Below, piece after piece: positions 2,543 to 10,451 of a stretch of 11,155 nt of DNA. A program made the position numbers and the translations under genes. The DNA lies in IMG/VR virus record IMGVR_UViG_2529292887_000008. The stretch is one strand, 5' to 3'. This stretch comes from a virus (taxonomy: Duplodnaviria > Heunggongvirae > Uroviricota > Caudoviricetes). Each line of letters starts with the position of its first letter. Within the stretch, counting starts at the first letter, position 1. The notes beneath the pieces are model-generated. The model did no database searches. It was not told the DNA's origin and saw nothing but the letters and a program-made list of their open reading frames with translations.

Positions 2543-2578
2543 CAACGCCCCGCAGTGATGGGAACACATACGGGGCGT
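2543..2578 (-). terminator. Hairpin with downstream U-tract on minus strand (putative terminator between modules); also 5' part of repeated leader element copy A
   Basis: Stem ACGCCCCG (2543-2550) / CGGGGCGT (2571-2578); on the minus strand followed by TGTTTTTTGTGC. Confidence 0.4.
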
Positions 2579-2665
2579 CTAACCAAACCATTAATTGAGG
2601 TAACGATTATGGTTATAAAAGAGCATAGCTTACTCTTTATACACACACAAACGCCCCGGAAACGG

Positions 2666-2688
2666 AATAATCCGTTTCATAGTTCGGT
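2666..2688. terminator. Perfect 8-bp hairpin GAAACGGA-ATAA-TCCGTTTC just past the stop of the 2698-2925 gene
   Basis: Stem-loop read directly from sequence, 10 nt beyond the minus-strand CDS end; the flanks are T-rich on the plus strand and GU-rich on the minus strand. Confidence 0.4.
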
Positions 2689-2697
2689 TTTGTGCAC

Positions 2698-2925
2698 TCA
2701 TCCTGGCGGTCGGTTTTTGCCGGATTTAAGCCGCCGTGGGTATTTATCGACAAAATCTTCAAGGGCAAATTTTTCTGGTGGCACTAAGCGCGGCGCTGGT
2801 GGTGGTATTTTTGTTCTGGTTAGTTCTTCCTCAAGTCTGGCGCAGGCTTCTGACTGCCTTTGCCGGATGATTTCATCATCTTGCGTTTGCGAGTCTTGTA
2901 TTGGTGATAGTGTGTTGTTGGTCAT
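2698..2925 (-). CDS. Small hypothetical protein (75 aa), paralogue of 2037-2240
   Basis: MTNNTLSP...EKFALEDFVDKYPRRLKSGKNRPPG; shares motifs and the upstream conserved leader with the 67-aa paralogue. Confidence 0.5.
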   Translation of the reverse strand: MTNNTLSPIQDSQTQDDEIIRQRQSEACARLEEELTRTKIPPPAPRLVPPEKFALEDFVDKYPRRLKSGKNRPPG

Positions 2926-2930
2926 GATAC

Positions 2931-2980
2931 TGCCCTGTAAAGCAATGCGCCGTAGTACCTCACACCACGGCGCTGATAGT
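2931..2980 (-). promoter_or_regulatory. Conserved ~45-bp intergenic element (copy 1) between RHH gene and small-protein gene
   Basis: CCTGTAAAGCAATGCGCCGtAGtaCCTCACaCCACGGCGCTGAT; differs from copy 2 only at loop positions of the GCGCCG/CGGCGC hairpin. Confidence 0.45.
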
Positions 2981-2982
2981 GA

Positions 2983-3162
2983 TTATTCTGATTCTTTGGC
3001 CTTGCGACGCTGGCGGTATTCAACTTCCCGCTTTAATGCAGCTGTAACAAACTGCCCTGTACTTTCGCCGGGCATTTTTACCGCCTCAACATTGTTCATA
3101 ACTTCATGTGGAACCCTTGCCGCAACTGTTTGTGATTTTGCGTTTACTGCTTTTGTCGCCAT
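2983..3162 (-). CDS. Ribbon-helix-helix (Arc/CopG/MetJ-like) DNA-binding protein, 59 aa from ATG 3162 (ORF track starts at GTG 3171)
   Basis: MATKAVNAKSQTVAARVPHEVMNNVEAVKMPGESTGQFVTAALKREVEYRQRRKAKESE: beta-strand TVAARV, helix A, G-x-S/T turn, helix B; SD GAGGGG 8 nt upstream of ATG 3162. Confidence 0.6.
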   Translation of the reverse strand: MATKAVNAKSQTVAARVPHEVMNNVEAVKMPGESTGQFVTAALKREVEYRQRRKAKESE

Positions 3163-3212
3163 GTTGAGCACCCCTCATAAAAAACAAATGCAGTATGCAG
3201 GAAAAAAAATAA

Positions 3213-3288
3213 GTGTTCAACACTTGACGTGTTTAACACCTCGATTTAAATTGGTGTTCAACACCTTATTTAGGCAAGGTGTTGAAAC
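3213..3288. promoter_or_regulatory. Operator array (4 copies of palindromic GTGTT-N-AACAC) overlapping a plus-strand promoter
   Basis: GTGTTCAACAC 3213-3223, GTGTTTAACAC 3229-3239, GTGTTCAACAC 3254-3264, GTGTTGAAAC 3279-3288; candidate -35 TTGACG at 3224-3229 and -10 TAAATT 3247-3252 between the divergent RHH gene and the replication operon. Confidence 0.5.
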
Positions 3289-3354
3289 GACGAAACCCCG
3301 CACTGTAGGAGCAGTAACGGGGCTTCTAACCAACAACGTAAACGAGGAGCCGTT

Positions 3355-3552
3355 ATGGTTGCTGTAAATCATATACCACACCTTGTACACACACAAACTG
3401 CCTTTGTGTGGCGTTTTCTGGCACTGAGTGCCGGAGAATCTCAAATCATCCACGTAACCGCCTGGACGGAACGCGAAGCGCGTAGCCGTTGCCCGTCCGG
3501 TTGTGTTGCTGTATTTGCCGCCCGTATTCGTCAGGGGGTATGCCGTGCTTAA
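3355..3552 (+). CDS. Hypothetical protein (65 aa), first ORF of rightward operon
   Basis: Strong SD GAGGAG 5 nt upstream of ATG 3355; the first ~45 nt belong to a repeated leader element (see findings), so coding status is uncertain. Confidence 0.35.
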   Translation: MVAVNHIPHLVHTQTAFVWRFLALSAGESQIIHVTAWTEREARSRCPSGCVAVFAARIRQGVCRA

Positions 3553-4158: not shown

Positions 4159-4458
4159 ATGAAACTTAAATATTCTGGCTTAACTGCCAGTGGCAACACT
4201 CACCCTAAATTTACGCGCGGTGATATTTACCGCGACCAGTACGGCGGCACGGTAATGATTAAGGGCGTGGCGGGACGGTGCGTAACTTACCGCCGTGAAG
4301 GTTACGAATATGATTGCGTGATGCCTGTTTATCAGTTCCGGCGTGATTTTTCTCTGGTACAGACCGCGCCGCATAACGTGCCCACCAGCAACGCCAGGGC
4401 ACGGGCAAACATCCAGAAGCTGAAAACCATGATTAACGGATTCAGGGGTAAAAAATGA
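4159..4458 (+). CDS. Hypothetical protein (99 aa)
   Basis: SD GGAGA 9 nt upstream of ATG 4159; stop overlaps the primase start (ATGA at 4455-4458). Confidence 0.55.
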   Translation: MKLKYSGLTASGNTHPKFTRGDIYRDQYGGTVMIKGVAGRCVTYRREGYEYDCVMPVYQFRRDFSLVQTAPHNVPTSNARARANIQKLKTMINGFRGKK

Positions 4459-6203
4459 AACTGGCACCGAACGTAAAAAAACAGCCACGCGGAATAAAAC
4501 ACAAAGACACAGAGGTAATTATCTTTGCGGGTAGTGATGCCTGGTCGCACGCGAAACAATGGCAGGAGCAGGATGGCCCCGCATCCGGCGATAATGTGCC
4601 GCCTGTGTGGCTTGGGCCAAAGCAGCTTGCCGAACTTGATGCGCTGAAAATTGTTCCGGATGGGAAAAAGCGCGTAAGGCTGTACCAGGCCGGAGAACTG
4701 GATTTAGTGGAGACCAAAAAGATTGGTCAGAAGCTGGCGGCGGCAGATATTCAGGACGCAAATTTTTACCACGAAGGAATGCACGTCCAGAAGTGTGAAA
4801 ACTGGCGGCGCTATCTGAATGCTGAGCGTGAAAATATTGCCGCAGGGCTTACCATGCCGGAGCAGAAAAATACGCAACTGGCACAAATGGCAGACAGTGA
4901 GCGCGCACAGATGCTTGCTGGTCGATTTGATGGCGTTTGTGTGCATCCGGAAAGTGAAATCGTTCACGTATGGCGCGGCGGGGTATGGTGTCCGGTCAGC
5001 ACAATGGAACTTAGCCGCGAAATGGTGGCGATCTATTCAGAGCACAGGGCCACTTTCAGCAAGCGCGTAATCAATAACGCCGTGGAAGCATTAAAAGTTA
5101 TTGCCGAACCAATGGGCGAGCCGTCCGGCGATTTGTTGCCGTTCGCCAATGGTGCGCTTGACCTGAAAACAGGGGAATTTTCCCCGCACACGCCGGAGAA
5201 CTGGATCACCACGCACAACGGCATTGAATACACGCCACCAGCACCAGGGGAGAATATCCGCGACAACGCGCCAAACTTTCATAAATGGCTTGATCACGCA
5301 GCCGGAAAAGACCCGCGCAAGATGATGCGTATATGTGCCGCGCTGTACATGATTATGGCGAACCGGTACGACTGGCAGATGTTTATTGAGGCCACCGGAG
5401 ACGGCGGGAGCGGTAAAAGTACATTCACACACATAGCCAGCCTTCTGGCAGGGAAACAGAACACGGTAAGCGCTGAAATGACATCGCTTGATGATGCTGG
5501 TGGACGTGCGCAGGTTGTCGGGAGTCGTCTTATCGTCCTGGCAGACCAGCCGAAATATACAGGCGAAGGAACGGGCATCAAGAAAATCACGGGCGGCGAC
5601 CCCGTGGAAATAAACCCGAAATATGAAAAGCGTTTCACGGCGGTAATCAGGGCGGTGGTGCTGGCGACCAATAATAACCCGATGATATTCACCGAACGGG
5701 CCGGAGGTGTGGCACGTCGTCGCGTGATTTTCCGTTTCGACAATATTGTTAGTGAGGCCGAAAAAGACAGGGAACTACCGGAAAAAATTGCGGCTGAAAT
5801 CCCCGTTATTATCCGCCGCTTGCTGGCGAACTTTACCGACCCTGAAAAGGCGAGGGCTTTACTACTGGAACAGCGTGACGGTGATGAAGCACTGGCAATA
5901 AAGCAACAGACGGATCCGGTTATTGAGTTTTGCCAGTTCCTGAATTTTCTGGAGGAAGCGCGCGGCCTGATGATGGGTGGCGGTGGTGATTCAGTGAAGT
6001 ACACGACCAGGAACAGCCTTTACCGCGTCTATCTGGCGTTTATGGCATACGCAGGCAGGAGCAAACCGCTAAACGTGGCTGAGTTCAGCAAGGCCATGAA
6101 GCCAGCGGCGAAAGTTTACGGGCATGAATATATTACGCGAAAAGTTAAGGGAGTAACGCAGACCAACGCAATTACAACAGACGATTGCGACGCGTTTTTA
6201 TAA
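4455..6203 (+). CDS. Replication initiator: P4-alpha / D5-family primase-helicase (582 aa)
   Basis: Walker A GDGGSGKST (nt ~5401-5427), Walker B-like RLIVLADQ, and overall resemblance to the phage/plasmid primase P4-family C-terminal domain; SD AGGGG upstream; iteron origin immediately downstream as in PICIs. Confidence 0.88.
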   Translation: MKLAPNVKKQPRGIKHKDTEVIIFAGSDAWSHAKQWQEQDGPASGDNVPPVWLGPKQLAELDALKIVPDGKKRVRLYQAGELDLVETKKIGQKLAAADIQDANFYHEGMHVQKCENWRRYLNAERENIAAGLTMPEQKNTQLAQMADSERAQMLAGRFDGVCVHPESEIVHVWRGGVWCPVSTMELSREMVAIYSEHRATFSKRVINNAVEALKVIAEPMGEPSGDLLPFANGALDLKTGEFSPHTPENWITTHNGIEYTPPAPGENIRDNAPNFHKWLDHAAGKDPRKMMRICAALYMIMANRYDWQMFIEATGDGGSGKSTFTHIASLLAGKQNTVSAEMTSLDDAGGRAQVVGSRLIVLADQPKYTGEGTGIKKITGGDPVEINPKYEKRFTAVIRAVVLATNNNPMIFTERAGGVARRRVIFRFDNIVSEAEKDRELPEKIAAEIPVIIRRLLANFTDPEKARALLLEQRDGDEALAIKQQTDPVIEFCQFLNFLEEARGLMMGGGGDSVKYTTRNSLYRVYLAFMAYAGRSKPLNVAEFSKAMKPAAKVYGHEYITRKVKGVTQTNAITTDDCDAFL

Positions 6204-6217
6204 TTTTTTGTAAAAGC

Positions 6218-6441
6218 CCTCTACCCCATCTACCTGAATGAAATAAATACATATTATTCAACATGATAAGTGGGTAGAGGGCCAGGTAGAAGGCTAATAA
6301 AAGCTCTCTACCTCTTCTACCTGATTTTATCAGTTTCAGGTAGCAGGGTAGACGGCAGGTAGAGGAGCTCAAAAAGCTATCTACCCGCTGAAAGCCGCGC
6401 CATTACTGACATGATGAGCATTCGGGTAGATGGGTAGAGGG
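6218..6441. repeat. Iteron cluster (putative replication origin): at least 12 copies of core GGTAGA in alternating orientation blocks
   Basis: CCTCTACC 6218-6225, CCATCTACC 6226-6234, GGGTAGAGG 6272-6280, CAGGTAGAAGG 6283-6293, CTCTCTACC 6304-6312, TCTTCTACC 6313-6321, CAGGTAGCAG 6337-6346, GGGTAGACGG 6347-6356, CAGGTAGAGG 6357-6366, CTATCTACCC 6378-6387, GGGTAGATGG 6424-6433, GGGTAGAGGG 6432-6441. Confidence 0.65.
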
Positions 6442-6486
6442 GGGGAGGCACAACTAAAAACTTTTTAAACGAGGGGGTGAAAATAA

Positions 6487-6801
6487 ATGCGCATACATCA
6501 AAATCACTTAACAAACATGCCAGCCGAAAACATGAATCAGGGGCGACAAATGACCAAAATTCGCAGAGACAGAACAGAGCCAAAATATAAAGCGTTAGAC
6601 ATGACTGAGCACACCTTAAAGGTGGCAATCAGAACGATAGACCGCCACACGCGGGAAGGATACGCGAAGGAACATCCCGAACTGATAAGCGCATTCATGA
6701 CCACAGCGGCGGCAAACTTTGCCACGCTGACAGAACGGGAGATTGCCGAAGCGGAACAGGTAACAACCATCAACGTTAAAACCGGAGAGGTGGAATCATG
6801 A
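6487..6801 (+). CDS. Hypothetical protein (104 aa; alternative starts at 6550 or 6601 possible)
   Basis: SD AGGGGG upstream of ATG 6487; stop overlaps ssb start (ATGA at 6798-6801). Confidence 0.5.
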   Translation: MRIHQNHLTNMPAENMNQGRQMTKIRRDRTEPKYKALDMTEHTLKVAIRTIDRHTREGYAKEHPELISAFMTTAAANFATLTEREIAEAEQVTTINVKTGEVES

Positions 6802-7208
6802 CAGCACAGATAGCCGCTTACGGGCGGCTGGTGGACGACCCGCAGGTAAAACAGACCAGCAAGGGCACACCGATGACGCTGGCGCGTATGGCGGTCCCCC
6901 TTCCGTGCAGCCAGGCAGATGACGGAACGGCTACGTTATGGCTATCGGTGATGGCATTTGGTAAGCAGGCCGACTTCCTGGCTAAACATCAAAAAGGCGA
7001 CGTTGCCAGCATATCTGGCGTGATGCAGATAAGCCAGTGGACCGGACAGAACGGGGAAACGCGGCAGGGTTATCAGGTTATTGCAGACAGCGTAATCAGT
7101 GCCCGTGCGGCACGTCCTGGCGGGAACAGACGCAAAACCACAGGCGCACAGGGTAATCAGCCACCAGCGGGAGACGATGACCCCTACGGTGATGATATTC
7201 CGTTCTGA
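6798..7208 (+). CDS. ssb: Single-stranded DNA-binding protein (SSB-like, 136 aa)
   Basis: C-terminal acidic tail DDDPYGDDIPF (the canonical SSB tip is DDDIPF), Gly/Gln/Pro-rich linker, N-terminal OB-fold-like region (AAYGRLVDDPQV...LWLSVMAFGKQA...); SD GGAGAGG upstream. Confidence 0.75.
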   Translation: MTAQIAAYGRLVDDPQVKQTSKGTPMTLARMAVPLPCSQADDGTATLWLSVMAFGKQADFLAKHQKGDVASISGVMQISQWTGQNGETRQGYQVIADSVISARAARPGGNRRKTTGAQGNQPPAGDDDPYGDDIPF

Positions 7209-7216
7209 ACGCACAG

Positions 7217-7238
7217 GCCGGAGAAAATCCGGCTTTTT
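7217..7238 (+). terminator. Intrinsic terminator
   Basis: Stem GCCGGA (7217-7222) / TCCGGC (7228-7233), loop GAAAA, then TTTTT (7234-7238). Confidence 0.65.
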
Positions 7239-7243
7239 GTACC

Positions 7244-7288
7244 CAAAAAAAGCCCGATAAGTACAGGAGGAAGCTTATCGGGCTTTTG
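7244..7288. terminator. Bidirectional intrinsic terminator
   Basis: A7 tract (7244-7250), stem AGCCCGATAAG (7251-7261) / CTTATCGGGCT (7273-7283), then TTTTG. Confidence 0.55.
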
Positions 7289-7361
7289 CTTACGAGGTTA
7301 ACAGCATGGTGACTACTGTTGCTGTAAATCATTTCATAATTTGCAACACAACTCAATTTTA

Positions 7362-7445: not shown

Positions 7446-7652
7446 ATGGCAGAAGAGAAAAAAGGCGGTGTTTCGGTGTACATAAGCCCCGAAATCGTGG
7501 AGGTGCTCAAGCAGCGCCACAAAAAAAACTATGAGGCTGGCGTAGCGGCTGGACTGGATCCGCTGATGACGCCGGAGCCGTCGATAGGTTCACTTGTGCG
7601 CTCTTATTTACTTGCGGCGCTTGGGATGCATAAAAATTATGGGGGTGAATAA
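7446..7652 (+). CDS. Hypothetical protein (68 aa), possibly RHH-like
   Basis: SD AAGAGGA upstream; the stretch VSVYISPEIVEVLKQRHKK suggests a beta-strand followed by a helix; stop overlaps capsid gene start (TAATG). Confidence 0.5.
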   Translation: MAEEKKGGVSVYISPEIVEVLKQRHKKNYEAGVAAGLDPLMTPEPSIGSLVRSYLLAALGMHKNYGGE

Positions 7653-8707
7653 TGGCAGGCAAAGCAACGGCACTTAACACTAACCAGCTTTTTGCGTACC
7701 TGAATCGCGGGGATATTGCGGAATTTAAATTCAGTCCGCTGTTTACCACGCTGTTTTTCCCGAACGTGGCGACATTCAGCACCCAAAACATCATGCTGGA
7801 TACCCTGGACATTGAAGAAGTCACCATGTCGGCGTTTTGTTCGCCTATGGTTGGCAGCCAGGTACAGCGCGATAAAGGATACGAAACCAGCACGATTAAA
7901 CCTGGCTACATGAAGCCAAAGCACGAAATCGATCCAACAAAAACCATCATGCGCATGGCTGGAGAAGATCCGGCACAGCTTAACGACCCTACCTACCGAC
8001 GTATGCGCCTGATTACTGGCAACATGCGCCGCCAGGTAAACGCCATTAAAGCGCGCGTGGAATGGCTGGCGGTGAATGCGATAACGACCGGAAAAAACAT
8101 TATTGAGGGCGAAGGCATAGAACGCTATGAAATAGACTGGAAAATACCGGAAAACTGCATCATAGAGCAGGGCAAGGGTAAAAAATGGTCCGAGCAGGAT
8201 AAAGAGATGCACGACCCAATCTATGACATCGAGCTTTATGCTGATCAGGCTGGTTGCCCCGCAAACGTCATGATTATGGGCGCTGAGGTATGGCGCACGT
8301 TACGCAGCTTTAAAAAATTCCGTGAGCTGTACGATCTTTCCCGTGGTTCAGAATCCGCCGCAGAACTGGCCTGTAAAAACCTGGGCGAAGTGGTGAGCTT
8401 TAAAGGCTATCTGGGCGATATTGCCCTTATCGTCTATTCCGGCAAATACGCTGACAGCGACGGCACAGAAAAATATTTCCTTGAGCCTGATTTGCTGGTT
8501 CTGGGCAACACCAACAATAAAGGGCTGGTGGCCTATGGTGCGATAATGGATCAGGAAGCGGTAAGAACGGGCGCAACACAAAACATGTTTTACCCGAAAA
8601 ACTGGATTGAGGACGGCGATCCGGCGATTGAGTACGTGCAGACACACAGTGCACCGCAGCCGGTACCGGCAGATATTCGCAAATTTGTTACCGTCAAAAT
8701 TGGTTAA
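7652..8707 (+). CDS. Major capsid protein, lambda gpE family (351 aa)
   Basis: Conserved blocks versus lambda gpE as I recall it: EFKFSPLF..LFF, PGYMKPKHEIDP, EDPAQLNDPTYRRMR, WSEQDKEMHDPIYDIELYA, RGSESAAELACKNLGEVVSFKGYLGDIALIVYSGKY, VLGNTNNKGLVAYGAIMD, YPKNWIEDGDPAIEY...SAP; similar length (351 vs 341 aa). Confidence 0.88.
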   Translation: MAGKATALNTNQLFAYLNRGDIAEFKFSPLFTTLFFPNVATFSTQNIMLDTLDIEEVTMSAFCSPMVGSQVQRDKGYETSTIKPGYMKPKHEIDPTKTIMRMAGEDPAQLNDPTYRRMRLITGNMRRQVNAIKARVEWLAVNAITTGKNIIEGEGIERYEIDWKIPENCIIEQGKGKKWSEQDKEMHDPIYDIELYADQAGCPANVMIMGAEVWRTLRSFKKFRELYDLSRGSESAAELACKNLGEVVSFKGYLGDIALIVYSGKYADSDGTEKYFLEPDLLVLGNTNNKGLVAYGAIMDQEAVRTGATQNMFYPKNWIEDGDPAIEYVQTHSAPQPVPADIRKFVTVKIG

Positions 8708-9510: not shown

Positions 9511-9686
9511 CGGGTCCTTCCTGGAATTATGGCCCGTTACGGGGCGGCGACCTCGCGCGTTTTCGCTATTTATGAGCCTTTTCAGGGGGGTGGTGGTGGT
9601 TTTGTTGTTTGCTCTATCTTTATGAATGAAAAGGGAAAGATGCAAACAATACACCAACCTGAAGCAGTAATTAAGTTGGTGTATTA
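9511..9686 (+). other. cos site 1 (plus orientation): lambda-like cosQ-cosN with a non-lambda cosB
   Basis: CGGGTCCTTCCTGGAATTATGGCCCGTTACG followed by GGGCGGCGACCT (9542-9553; identical to the lambda 12-nt cohesive end as I recall it) and CGCGCGTTTTCGCTATTTATGA; thereafter diverged, with an 11-bp inverted repeat AATACACCAAC (9648-9658) / GTTGGTGTATT (9675-9685) abutting the terS start. Confidence 0.7.
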
Positions 9687-10229
9687 ATGAAATCTCATCT
9701 GATGAACAAAAAAAACATGGCGAAAAGCTGCCGTGTAAGTGCGACAGCGTTCGACAAGTGGGGAGTGACTCCCGTTGAACGTAAAGGCCGTGAGGCGTTT
9801 TATGATGTTGCCAGCGTGATAGACAATAGGGTTAACAATGCAATTAGCCAGCTTACAAACGACAAAGGCGATATTGATGATGATGAACTCTTACGAGTCA
9901 GGATCAGATTACTGACAGCACAGGCGGAGGCGCAGGAACTTAAAAACGAGCGCGATCGCGGTGACGTGATTGATACTGAGTTTTGCCTGTACGCGCTTTC
10001 AAAGCTGGCGAGTCAGATTTCATCAATCATGGACAGCCTCCCGCTTACTATGCAAAGGAGCTTCCCACAGATTACCCCCGCCATGCTGGACAGGCTTAAA
10101 AGGGAAGTGGTTAAAGCCTGTAATGCCAGTGCCAGAGTTGCCGACAACCTCCCACAGATACTGGCTGATTACTTGAAAGAAACAACCGGAAACGTACCGG
10201 AAAAGTTGCTACAGAAGAAAGGCAAGTAA
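9687..10229 (+). CDS. Small terminase subunit, lambda Nu1-like (180 aa; ATG 9702 aligns better with the Nu1 N-terminus)
   Basis: LTAQAEAQELKNERDRGDVIDTEFCLYALSKLASQISSIMDSLPLTMQRSFPQ and LKREVVKACNASA parallel lambda Nu1 (LTRAQADAQELKNARDSAEVVETAFCTFVLSRIAGEIASILDGLPLSVQRRFPE...FLKRDIIKAMNKAA); N-terminus MNKKNMAKS...FDKWG parallels MEVNKKQLADIFG...QNWQEQG. Confidence 0.82.
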   Translation: MKSHLMNKKNMAKSCRVSATAFDKWGVTPVERKGREAFYDVASVIDNRVNNAISQLTNDKGDIDDDELLRVRIRLLTAQAEAQELKNERDRGDVIDTEFCLYALSKLASQISSIMDSLPLTMQRSFPQITPAMLDRLKREVVKACNASARVADNLPQILADYLKETTGNVPEKLLQKKGK

Positions 10230-10256: not shown

Positions 10257-10451
10257 AGAAAGGATCTGATAATGGCATTTTCTGGCTAAAATGCCTCGTG
10301 TCAGATCCTTTCTTTTTTTAATATTTTCATTGTTAAACAGTCTGTTACAGAGAAGAAGAACGGATCTGACTTTTGCCGGAAAATTTTCATAAACAGATAA
10401 AAACCGCGAGGCCGCCGCCCCGTAACGGGCCATAATTCCAGGAAGGACCCG
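10257..10451 (-). other. cos site 2 (minus orientation): lambda-like cosQ-cosN-cosB with altered R elements
   Basis: Reverse complement reads CGGGTCCTTCCTGGAATTATGGCCCGTTACG-GGGCGGCGGCCT-CGCGGTTTTTATCTGTTTATGAAAATTTTCCGG...CCGTTCTTCTTC...AAAAGAAAGGATCTGACA...TCAGATCCTTTCTC, collinear with lambda cosN-cosB (R3/I1/R2/R1) but with GGATCTGA-type R elements at 10262-10269, 10301-10308 and 10362-10369; cosN complement at 10409-10420. Confidence 0.7.

Follow-up and report, generated by a model that had tools for sequence, protein, structure and literature searches.

A cluster of short repeats lies directly 3' of a putative primase-helicase gene (pri) in an 11,155-bp stretch of viral DNA, here called the window, and the question it raises is whether these repeats are a replication origin, to what kind of element they belong and what sets their specificity. 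We read positions 6220-6438 as the replication origin (ori) of an EcCICFT073-type phage-inducible chromosomal island (PICI), with a probability of roughly 0.86, on the support of observations made here or already in print: the clustering of the repeats, their selective conservation, the homology of the initiator to PDB 1KA8, the covariation of the iterons with the initiator and the orthology to CFT073. The element is almost certainly of a known kind, a satellite replication origin (PICI ori) in an ordinary, catalogued class of islands; in EcCICFT073 an origin built in this way was described, and its function tested, in 2018 (PMC6092414). As a replication origin the region adds little, and the gains are practical; further work might be worthwhile only on a 21-nt block in one of its spacers.

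Judged from its sequence, the window is an EcCICFT073-type PICI. It presents an integrase gene, a regulator of the AlpA type, a rightward operon and a packaging signal of the helper type within about 10-12 kb, the attachment site of its closest relative is a catalogued one, and its gene order (int, AlpA-like HTH, Icd-like, DUF4222, pri, the repeats, a hypothetical gene, SSB, lambda-E-like capsid, decoration, terS) is identical to that of EcCICFT073, the prototype Gram-negative PICI, which carries the capsid gene c1499 and the decoration gene c1500. The main features of the island are:

1-1230: tyrosine integrase, followed by small regulator genes
4159-4458: DUF4222 protein
4455..6203, + strand: pri-rep, 582 aa, with D5_N at aa 151-281, SF3 helicase/DUF5906 at aa 314-415 and the Walker A motif GDGGSGKS at aa 315-322
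5910..6176, + strand: C-terminal winged-helix domain of Pri (aa 486-574), putative iteron reader
6487-6801, + strand: 104-aa ORF, hypothetical
6798..7208, + strand: single-strand DNA-binding protein (SSB; Pfam SSB, PHROG 44), syntenic in CFT073 and other islands
7652-8707: lambda-E-like major capsid protein, followed by the decoration protein and the small terminase
9542-9553: exact lambda cosN 12-mer, just upstream of terS

The nearest relative in a complete genome shares 96.9% identity across 95% of the window; its island lies in tqsA, and its gene list matches that of the window, the AlpA-like HTH and Icd-like genes included. Table S1 of Fillol-Salom 2018 (PMC6092414) lists PICIs of about 11 kb at tqsA (EcCI042 and EcCIK1516), the yejM PICI EcCIATCC25922 (our locus L004) and PICIs at cspD-clpS, the site also seen in L003 and L007, and the island class had therefore already been catalogued. 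Two long ORFs, 1846-2598 and 2555-3367, are unlikely to be real genes: at this place the closest annotated relative carries small genes on the opposite strand. No defence systems were found among the unassigned ORFs with PADLOC.

The exact hexamer GGTAGA occurs 11 times in the window, and all 11 copies fall within the 219 bp of 6220-6438; dinucleotide-preserving shuffles of the window (n = 200) contained 2.48 copies on average and 6 at most, and none of the 200 reached 11. A twelfth copy, at 6339-6344, is the one-change variant GGTAGC. Even the pentamer GTAGA/TCTAC is found only once beyond the cluster (position 751), against about 22 occurrences expected by base composition. With '-' standing for TCTACC read on the + strand, the copies form the series 6220-, 6229- / 6273+, 6285+ / 6307-, 6316- / 6339+, 6347+, 6358+ / 6380- / 6425+, 6433+; the consensus of the oriented copies is (C)RGGTAGAnGG, about 10 nt long, and neighbouring iterons of the same orientation are spaced by 8-12 bp. 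The stop codon of pri-rep (6201-6203) is followed after 17 bp by the first iteron, and the array, flanked by gene blocks of one orientation, leaves 48 bp to the start codon of the following gene. The initial annotation had described at least 12 copies of a GGTAGA core, arranged as pair, pair, pair, triplet, single and pair, over 6218-6441 and directly downstream of the initiator gene; number, order, extent and location all proved accurate, with the single qualification that the twelfth copy is the variant. The origin can confidently be annotated as 6204-6486.

Since short repeats generally occur in intergenic DNA, it could be argued that the cluster consists of chance or decaying repeats, or that it serves packaging (cos/pac) or attachment, and in any of these cases plays no part in replication. 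To the shuffling result, which speaks against chance, conservation can be added. The intergenic region was aligned in 14 distinct alleles from E. coli, Shigella and IMG/VR, and invariant columns amounted to 53/72 in the iteron cores versus 35/156 in the other intergenic positions (Fisher p = 3e-13, a value that is descriptive only, the alleles being mutually related). These columns group as the end of pri, the iteron cores, the 21-nt block and the sequence around the ribosome-binding site of the gene that follows, so that cores are kept while spacers diverge. Across all lineages 9-10 of the twelve cores are retained, those at 6285 and 6339 being specific to particular lineages, and the low conservation score of the 6273 copy is due to a one-base alignment shift. 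One-base indels are present in the spacers (for example in L001), and the intergenic region is therefore non-coding. The cluster cannot be the packaging site, since the lambda cosN 12-mer is present in exact form elsewhere, at 9542-9553 upstream of terS, and the attachment core of the tqsA-site class was not found in the window. The probability that we assign to this whole group of explanations is negligible.

The alternation of blocks has a simple geometry: the array is a dyad, two mirror-image units about position ~6330, composed of the following parts:

6220-6225 and 6229-6234, - strand: cores of the outer iteron pair, left arm; 11/12 core columns invariant in the 14 alleles
6235-6272: left spacer, 38 bp, 79% AT versus 51% in the window; putative unwinding site
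6273-6278 and 6285-6290, + strand: opposed iterons, left arm; the 6285 copy lineage-specific
6307-6312 and 6316-6321, - strand: inner iteron pair, left arm; 11/12 core columns invariant
6321-6333: small palindrome CTGATTTTATCAG, read from the sequence, at the dyad centre
6339-6344 (GGTAGC), 6347-6352 and 6358-6363, + strand: inner iteron triplet, right arm; 6347 and 6358 conserved, 6339 lineage-specific
6380-6385, - strand: single opposed iteron, right arm; 5/6 columns invariant
6386-6424: right spacer, 39 bp, 46% AT, holding the 21-nt block
6388..6408, + strand: the non-iteron block CTGAAAGCCGCGCCATTACTG, overlooked in the initial annotation
6425-6430 and 6433-6438, + strand: outer iteron pair, right arm; inverted copy of the left outer pair
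6456-6489, + strand: translation-initiation region of the next gene (AAAACTTTTTAAACGAGGGGG ... ATG 6487), invariant in the 14 alleles; right bound of the origin

The ATG at 6487 opens the ORF 6487-6801, and in CFT073 the CDS is annotated from the equivalent ATG. Measured from 6330 to their near ends, the outer pairs lie at 96/95 and 105/103 and the opposed copies at 52/50; the outer pairs are 94% complementary (inverted repeat I2), and there are further inverted-repeat pairs (I5, I11 and I13). As single-stranded DNA, 6212-6446 has a predicted fold with z = -6.8 in which the arms are paired with each other. An AT-rich spacer stands at the equivalent place in L162, L010, L236 and in the crr of P4, and L228, L230 and L234 carry the two units in reverse order. 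Because of this swapped order, and because the P4 crr duplicates a similar unit, the units look like separable modules, and a dyad of two such units is the better description of the origin.

The initiator gene was examined for its domains. Pri is matched by Pfam D5_N, DUF5906 and Pox_D5 and by TIGR01613; its aa 193-430 match PDB 7OLA, the helicase of SaPI5 PriRep (E=1e-14), and its aa 486-574 match PDB 1KA8, the origin-binding domain of P4 alpha (E=8.5e-6), while the C-terminus has the Pox_D5 match together with a weak match to the RFX winged helix. Pri is 91-97% identical to Pri of CFT073 and of other E. coli PICIs, and its last 100 residues are almost invariant among islands of the GGTAGA type. 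The N-terminal domain, about 145 aa, gave a different picture. A search of aa 1-~152 returned no family match in Pfam or NCBIfam, and a catalytic primase domain was not recognised; a first search for homologues returned only proteins that were at least 98% identical, too close for a useful alignment, long P4-like homologues align to Pri only from residue ~117-142, and the AlphaFold2 single-sequence model (pLDDT 54) was too poor to use. This domain shuffles independently, ranging from 39 to 100% identity while the core holds 92-99%, and in L067 an N-terminal domain of the Pri type is fused to an AAA_25 helicase. In the 450 bp downstream of most primase relatives from Pantoea, Erwinia and Serratia no evident cluster of iterons was seen, which left these relatives uninformative.

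A bearing on function comes from CFT073. In complete E. coli genomes the query 6150-6500 (351 bp) matches 435 of 5,426 (~8%), the match being chromosomal in every case and 283 of the 435 falling at 60-80% identity; CFT073-type alleles are 77% identical in nucleotide sequence over 100% of the query, are syntenic and have the same iteron core. Fillol-Salom 2018 (PMC6092414) placed the origin immediately 3' of the initiator gene, with two iteron sets around an AT-rich region, and a CFT073 plasmid with pri and ori replicated at 44 C, whereas those with pri and delta-ori or with delta-pri and ori did not (PMC6092414). The published primers locate the deleted ori fragment at about 7001-7307 of the CFT073 locus (L005), that is, the GGTAGA region plus 65 bp: the delta-ori construct stops at the pri stop codon (primer rep-3c, L005:6980-7000), the pri-ori construct runs to about L005:7307 (primer rep-2c, a match with a one-base discrepancy), and the primer for the pri deletion includes CAGGTAGACAGGGTAGACAG, which corresponds to the first two iterons. 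From this mapping the required CFT073 fragment is the orthologue of 6204-~6510 in the window. It is this orthology, to a fragment needed for Pri-dependent replication, that bears out the position and organisation of a satellite origin claimed in the initial annotation.

The iteron comparison with EcCICFT073, which had been recommended there, gives the same core and the same layout. The two loci share the site between pri and the small ORF/SSB, the order of the orientation blocks (TCTACC/GGTAGA in L005 as in the window), the 21-nt block and an island architecture that includes the lambda-E-like capsid and decoration genes, and the Pri proteins are 91% identical with C-terminal domains that are almost identical. 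They differ in several details. The origins are about 77% identical at the nucleotide level, and replication was tested on the CFT073 fragment; the left arm has 2+2 iterons in the window allele versus 1+3 in CFT073, and the right inner block is a triplet versus a pair; at 6273/6285 CFT073-type alleles have one iteron, with a T-run replacing the second; the core flanks are GGGTAGAGGG/CAGGTAGAAG in the window versus GGTAGACAG/GGTAGATAG in CFT073; and the attachment site is tqsA for the closest relative of the window versus ycfD-phoQ for EcCICFT073.

A comparison with P4, also proposed at the outset, is apt, given that the C-terminal origin-binding domain of alpha (1KA8) is homologous to that of Pri and that crr, directly 3' of alpha, holds iterons in mixed orientation. 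P4 alpha reportedly binds its type-1 iterons through this C-terminal domain. A crr unit is also similar in composition to a unit of the window (iterons, opposed iteron or iterons, an AT-rich spacer and a pair). However, crr is a cis-acting enhancer, and initiation in P4 takes place at a second cluster (ori) 4.5 kb away, so that location 3' of pri alone does not prove initiation there. The GGTAGA cluster might accordingly be a crr-like enhancer acting in cis, or half of a bipartite origin, with opening and priming taking place elsewhere or together with a second element, and the swapped order of the two separable units in L228, L230 and L234 would agree with different roles for them. Yet no second cluster of GGTAGA or GTAGA exists anywhere in the island: P4 has ori and crr 4.5 kb apart, while the window has one cluster and the stray pentamer at 751. 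The cluster moreover holds its own 79% AT spacer, and in CFT073 pri and the orthologous fragment alone were enough for plasmid replication (PMC6092414). We consider an enhancer or half-origin quite unlikely and retain the reading of the cluster as the origin. Other differences from P4 are the type-1 iteron itself (TGTTCACC, a type found only in more distant relatives, versus GGTAGA in the window), the arrangement of crr as two direct 120-bp repeats versus two inverted units, and the length of alpha, 777 aa versus 582 aa for Pri, in which no counterpart of the N-terminal primase region of alpha was recognised.

SaPI origins have 6-12 short iterons, and an AT-rich region in them is flanked on either side by two or more, the two sides pointing in opposed directions (Qiao et al. 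2022, PMC9371898), and in the window 12 iterons are found, with 6220-/6229- and 6273+/6285+ flanking the 79% AT spacer. The other traits of the PICI/SaPI Rep-ori systems are likewise found, namely an origin immediately 3' of the initiator gene and an SF3 helicase with a C-terminal winged helix. As in SaPIbov1, SaPI1 and SaPI5 the ori is 3' of the Rep/PriRep gene, and the helicase core matches 7OLA; the SaPI origins differ in that they belong to another host phylum, have unrelated iteron sequences and contain a single central AT-rich region, whereas the window has a second spacer with a conserved GC-rich block. In the published model of PICI/SaPI origins the melting site lies between opposed iteron sets (PMC6092414; PMC9371898), and SaPI Rep is modelled as binding penta- or hexanucleotide iterons through its C-terminal winged helix and acting as two self-loading hexamers (Qiao et al. 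2022, PMC9371898).

By analogy with these systems, a mechanism can be proposed for the island. After induction, Pri-Rep of the window allele would bind the ~10-bp RGGTAGAnGG iterons through the winged-helix domain (aa 486-574), and the two-unit layout may steer two oppositely oriented SF3 helicase oligomers, possibly assembling as a double hexamer. The AT-rich spacer 6235-6272 would then be melted and the helicase would load itself, as proposed for SaPI Rep and P4 alpha; the unwound strands would be coated by the island SSB (6798-7208), and the concatemers arising from replication would be packaged at the lambda-type cos site (9542-9553).

The place of the array between co-oriented gene blocks, 48 bp short of a start codon, would suit operators as well, and iteron arrays of plasmids often also autoregulate; the repeats might thus serve mainly as operators for Pri, AlpA or the 104-aa product of 6487-6801, replication being secondary. 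Against this, neither a sigma-70-like promoter nor an intrinsic terminator was found by a scan of 6000-6700, Gram-negative PICIs are described as a single rightward transcription unit (PMC6092414), and the orthologous CFT073 fragment is needed for replication (PMC6092414). It should also be considered that the iteron sequence covaries with the C-terminal domain of Pri, as set out below. A mainly regulatory role is in our opinion highly improbable.

Relatives of the island carry other iterons: P4-type (G)GTGAACA in vB_KppS-Ant (L162), Morganella (L010, which carries the variant TGTTCAT), Serratia (L014), L234 and L236, and CAGTGCC in the Aeromonas locus L011. An alignment of C-terminal domains splits the (G)GTGAACA group (…PR(K/R)YLYHAYL…) from the GGTAGA group (…TRNSLYRVYL…). 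In a series of IMG/VR homologues, tabulated as representatives drawn from 80 loci, GGTAGA is kept in 21/21 whose C-terminal domain is at least 53% identical, while tabulated homologues about 30% identical in this domain have TGAACA or GGTATAC iterons. The comparison of L236 with L243 is the clearest: N-terminus and helicase core are 100% identical, the C-terminal domain is 85% identical, and the iteron is ATGAACAC in the former and ATGTATACC in the latter at identical positions. The initial annotation had suggested that the alternating-orientation arrangement could define origin specificity, a suggestion that does not hold, because the same layout is found in relatives with GGTGAACA iterons (L162, L010, L236) and with GGTATAC (L243). 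As the layout is common to all these iteron classes and the iterons covary with the C-terminal domain, specificity appears, from these alignments, to track the iteron sequence together with that domain. It is the iteron sequence and the C-terminal ~100 residues of Pri, rather than the pattern of orientations, from which specificity should be read.

The array had also been put forward as a marker for related islands. It does tag one pri-ori module, but this module is found joined to several different packaging modules, and the marker is of partial use only.

A classical iteron plasmid origin (pSC101, R6K, RK2, P1) was considered and rejected. Those origins have direct repeats of ~17-22 bp, an initiator of the Rep_3/TrfA type and DnaA boxes, whereas the repeats of the window are ~10 bp long and in both orientations, and the initiator is an SF3 helicase; by eye, no match to TTATNCACA, the criterion for a DnaA box, was better than two mismatches. 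The lambda-type origins in O-like genes (Sf6/HK022/HK620, CUS-3/Stx2a-phage) resemble the window in having iteron arrays by an AT-rich segment, and a subset of them also has the 15-mer GCCGCGCCATTACTG in a spacer of ~36-39 bp between two iteron sets. They differ in lying inside the initiator gene and in having direct repeats, those of the window being inverted, and their initiators (Phage_rep_O + P, or an O-like protein with a DnaB-like helicase) are unrelated to Pri.

This 15-mer is the core (6394-6408) of the block CTGAAAGCCGCGCCATTACTG in the right spacer, which is invariant or nearly so in the E. coli alleles (16/23 columns versus 22% of the other spacer columns). The core is exact in the Aeromonas tecta locus L011, despite different iterons. 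An exact scan of IMG/VR found the 15-mer in at least 120 stretches, with 103 unique contexts among the matches listed, and we estimate that chance alone would give matches of the order of a hundred for a 15-mer in a collection of that size. About half of the 103 contexts, among the matches listed, have no repeats, many of them being inside P2-gpA-like genes; in 52 contexts among the matches listed the 15-mer lies in a spacer of ~36-39 bp between iteron sets, of at least nine iteron classes. The initiators next to it are unrelated: lambda O + P (L070), an O-like protein with a DnaB-like helicase (L051), Prim-Pol/PriCT (L157), a Toprim primase with a D5-like helicase (L106), an AAA_25 helicase (L067) and a P4-alpha-like protein (L011). 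Origins with the 15-mer span phages and satellites of E. coli, Shigella and Aeromonas.

A link to P2 was considered and set aside. About one third of the IMG/VR matches, among the matches listed, are inside P2-gpA-like genes and have no iterons; the motif is absent from the P2 genome, whose annotated nick site (GCCGCGCC before the nick, TCGG after it) shares an 8-mer only, and we take this class to be a coincidental match whose numbers reflect how common the gene is. The motif is also absent from P22, P4, L162, L010 and L228-L231, and lambda itself is not known to carry it. As the P22 ori, with TCGGTAAA iterons, has no motif, the motif is not general to O-like origins; in some of the origins devoid of it, its position is taken by an AT-rich spacer or by a perfect hairpin. 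In the spacer holding the motif, inspection by eye revealed no convincing DnaA box, IHF, Fis, sigma-70/sigma-54 promoter, Chi, dif or Ter site. A perfect TACTG-N10-CAGTA, the form of a LexA box, is found in the CFT073 allele only and not in the window allele. In open full texts, where sequences in figures are not searchable, the 12-mer GCGCCATTACTG on both strands returned nothing relevant, only unrelated papers, and no description of the CTGAAAGCCGCGCCATTACTG block was found in them.

It is conceivable, at somewhat less than even odds, that CTGAAAGCCGCGCCATTACTG is an undescribed origin element independent of the type of initiator. Our best guess is that it would serve a common host factor as its site, or mark a fixed point of priming or loading, and that many mobile replicons of enterobacteria have adopted it; it is a lead, not a result. 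If functional, the block would point to a host dependency common to lambdoid phages and their satellites, and it would offer a sequence tag for finding origins whatever the initiator. Among the origins that carry the motif, the L051 type is that of Sf6/HK022/HK620, annotated merely as 'putative; repeat region reminiscent of the phage lambda origin', and the L056 type is present in CUS-3 and in many Stx2a phages; going 5' from the motif, the segment richest in AT is reached after 60-150 bp in most representatives.

The origin (6220-6438) consists of two mirror-image units arranged around a dyad at about 6330, and their spacers measure 38 bp (AT-rich) and 39 bp (carrying a motif block). As the order of the units is swapped in some relatives (L228, L230 and L234, within the first 360 bp after the initiator gene pri), the two look like separable modules, for which ori and crr of P4 are the comparables. 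The 39-bp spacer holds an invariant block outside the iterons:

6388-6408, right-hand spacer of the origin: block CTGAAAGCCGCGCCATTACTG, with a 15-mer core at 6394-6408

We found this 15-mer core again between the iteron arrays of at least nine further iteron classes, among the matches listed, and the initiators of the origins that share it are unrelated to one another. It is present in an Aeromonas locus (L011:4103-4117) and also in L051, L056, L070, L079, L106, L156 and L157; the O-gene origins of Sf6/HK022 type and of Stx2a phages are among the carriers. In the CFT073-type allele the spacer reads TACTGGCATGGTGGCCAGTA (L005:7199-7218), a perfect TACTG-N10-CAGTA of LexA-box form overlapping the conserved block at its end, while the same stretch of the window, TACTGACATGATGAGCATTC, is without TACTG-N10-CAGTA.

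Concerning the iterons, the Pri proteins encoded by two IMG/VR loci (L236 and L243) have the same N-terminus and helicase core, their C-terminal domains are 85% identical, and at the same positions after the pri stop codon the iterons are ATGAACAC in L236 but ATGTATACC in L243. Since a few TGAACA copies remain in L243, this locus looks like a specificity switch caught in transition. The origin contains 11 copies of the pentamer GTAGA/TCTAC, and the rest of the window has a single one (position 751), with about 22 expected from base composition. This scarcity outside the origin may mean that stray initiator sites are avoided, or it may simply follow from the fact that words with TAG are rare in E. 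coli anyway.

Pri itself is a primase in name, and its primase activity is putative:

4455-4890: N-terminal domain of Pri, amino acids 1-145, with no family match in Pfam or NCBIfam

The identity of this domain ranges from 39 to 100% and varies independently of the helicase core; at L067:2969-4372 a domain of the same type is fused to an AAA_25 helicase, which replaces the SF3 helicase.

One pri-ori module is combined with at least four different morphogenesis modules downstream of the SSB gene (L001, L003, L006 and L008 compared with the window):

module 1: lambda-E-like capsid, decoration protein and terS
module 2: ClpP-capsid fusion
module 3: terS and another capsid
module 4: HK97 capsid, protease and portal

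An ori of the window type occurs in about 8% of complete E. coli genomes, in up to three copies per genome, and with such multiple copies one may ask whether islands in the same cell engage in cross-talk.

Two long overlapping ORFs gave no match in Pfam, PHROG or PADLOC:

1846-2598, + strand: long ORF
2555-3367, + strand: long ORF

They are probably not genes, because the closest annotated relative has small opposite-strand genes in the corresponding stretch (YlcI/YnfO-like and hypotheticals).

Sequences related to lambda cosN are found at three positions:

9542-9553, + strand: exact cosN 12-mer GGGCGGCGACCT, a short way upstream of the gene for the small terminase (9687-10229)
10409-10420, - strand: near-match with one mismatch, the other copy flanking this gene
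5591-5602, + strand: near-match with one mismatch, inside pri

The copies around the small-terminase gene fit packaging at cos sites by lambdoid helper phages, and the one inside pri is probably due to chance.
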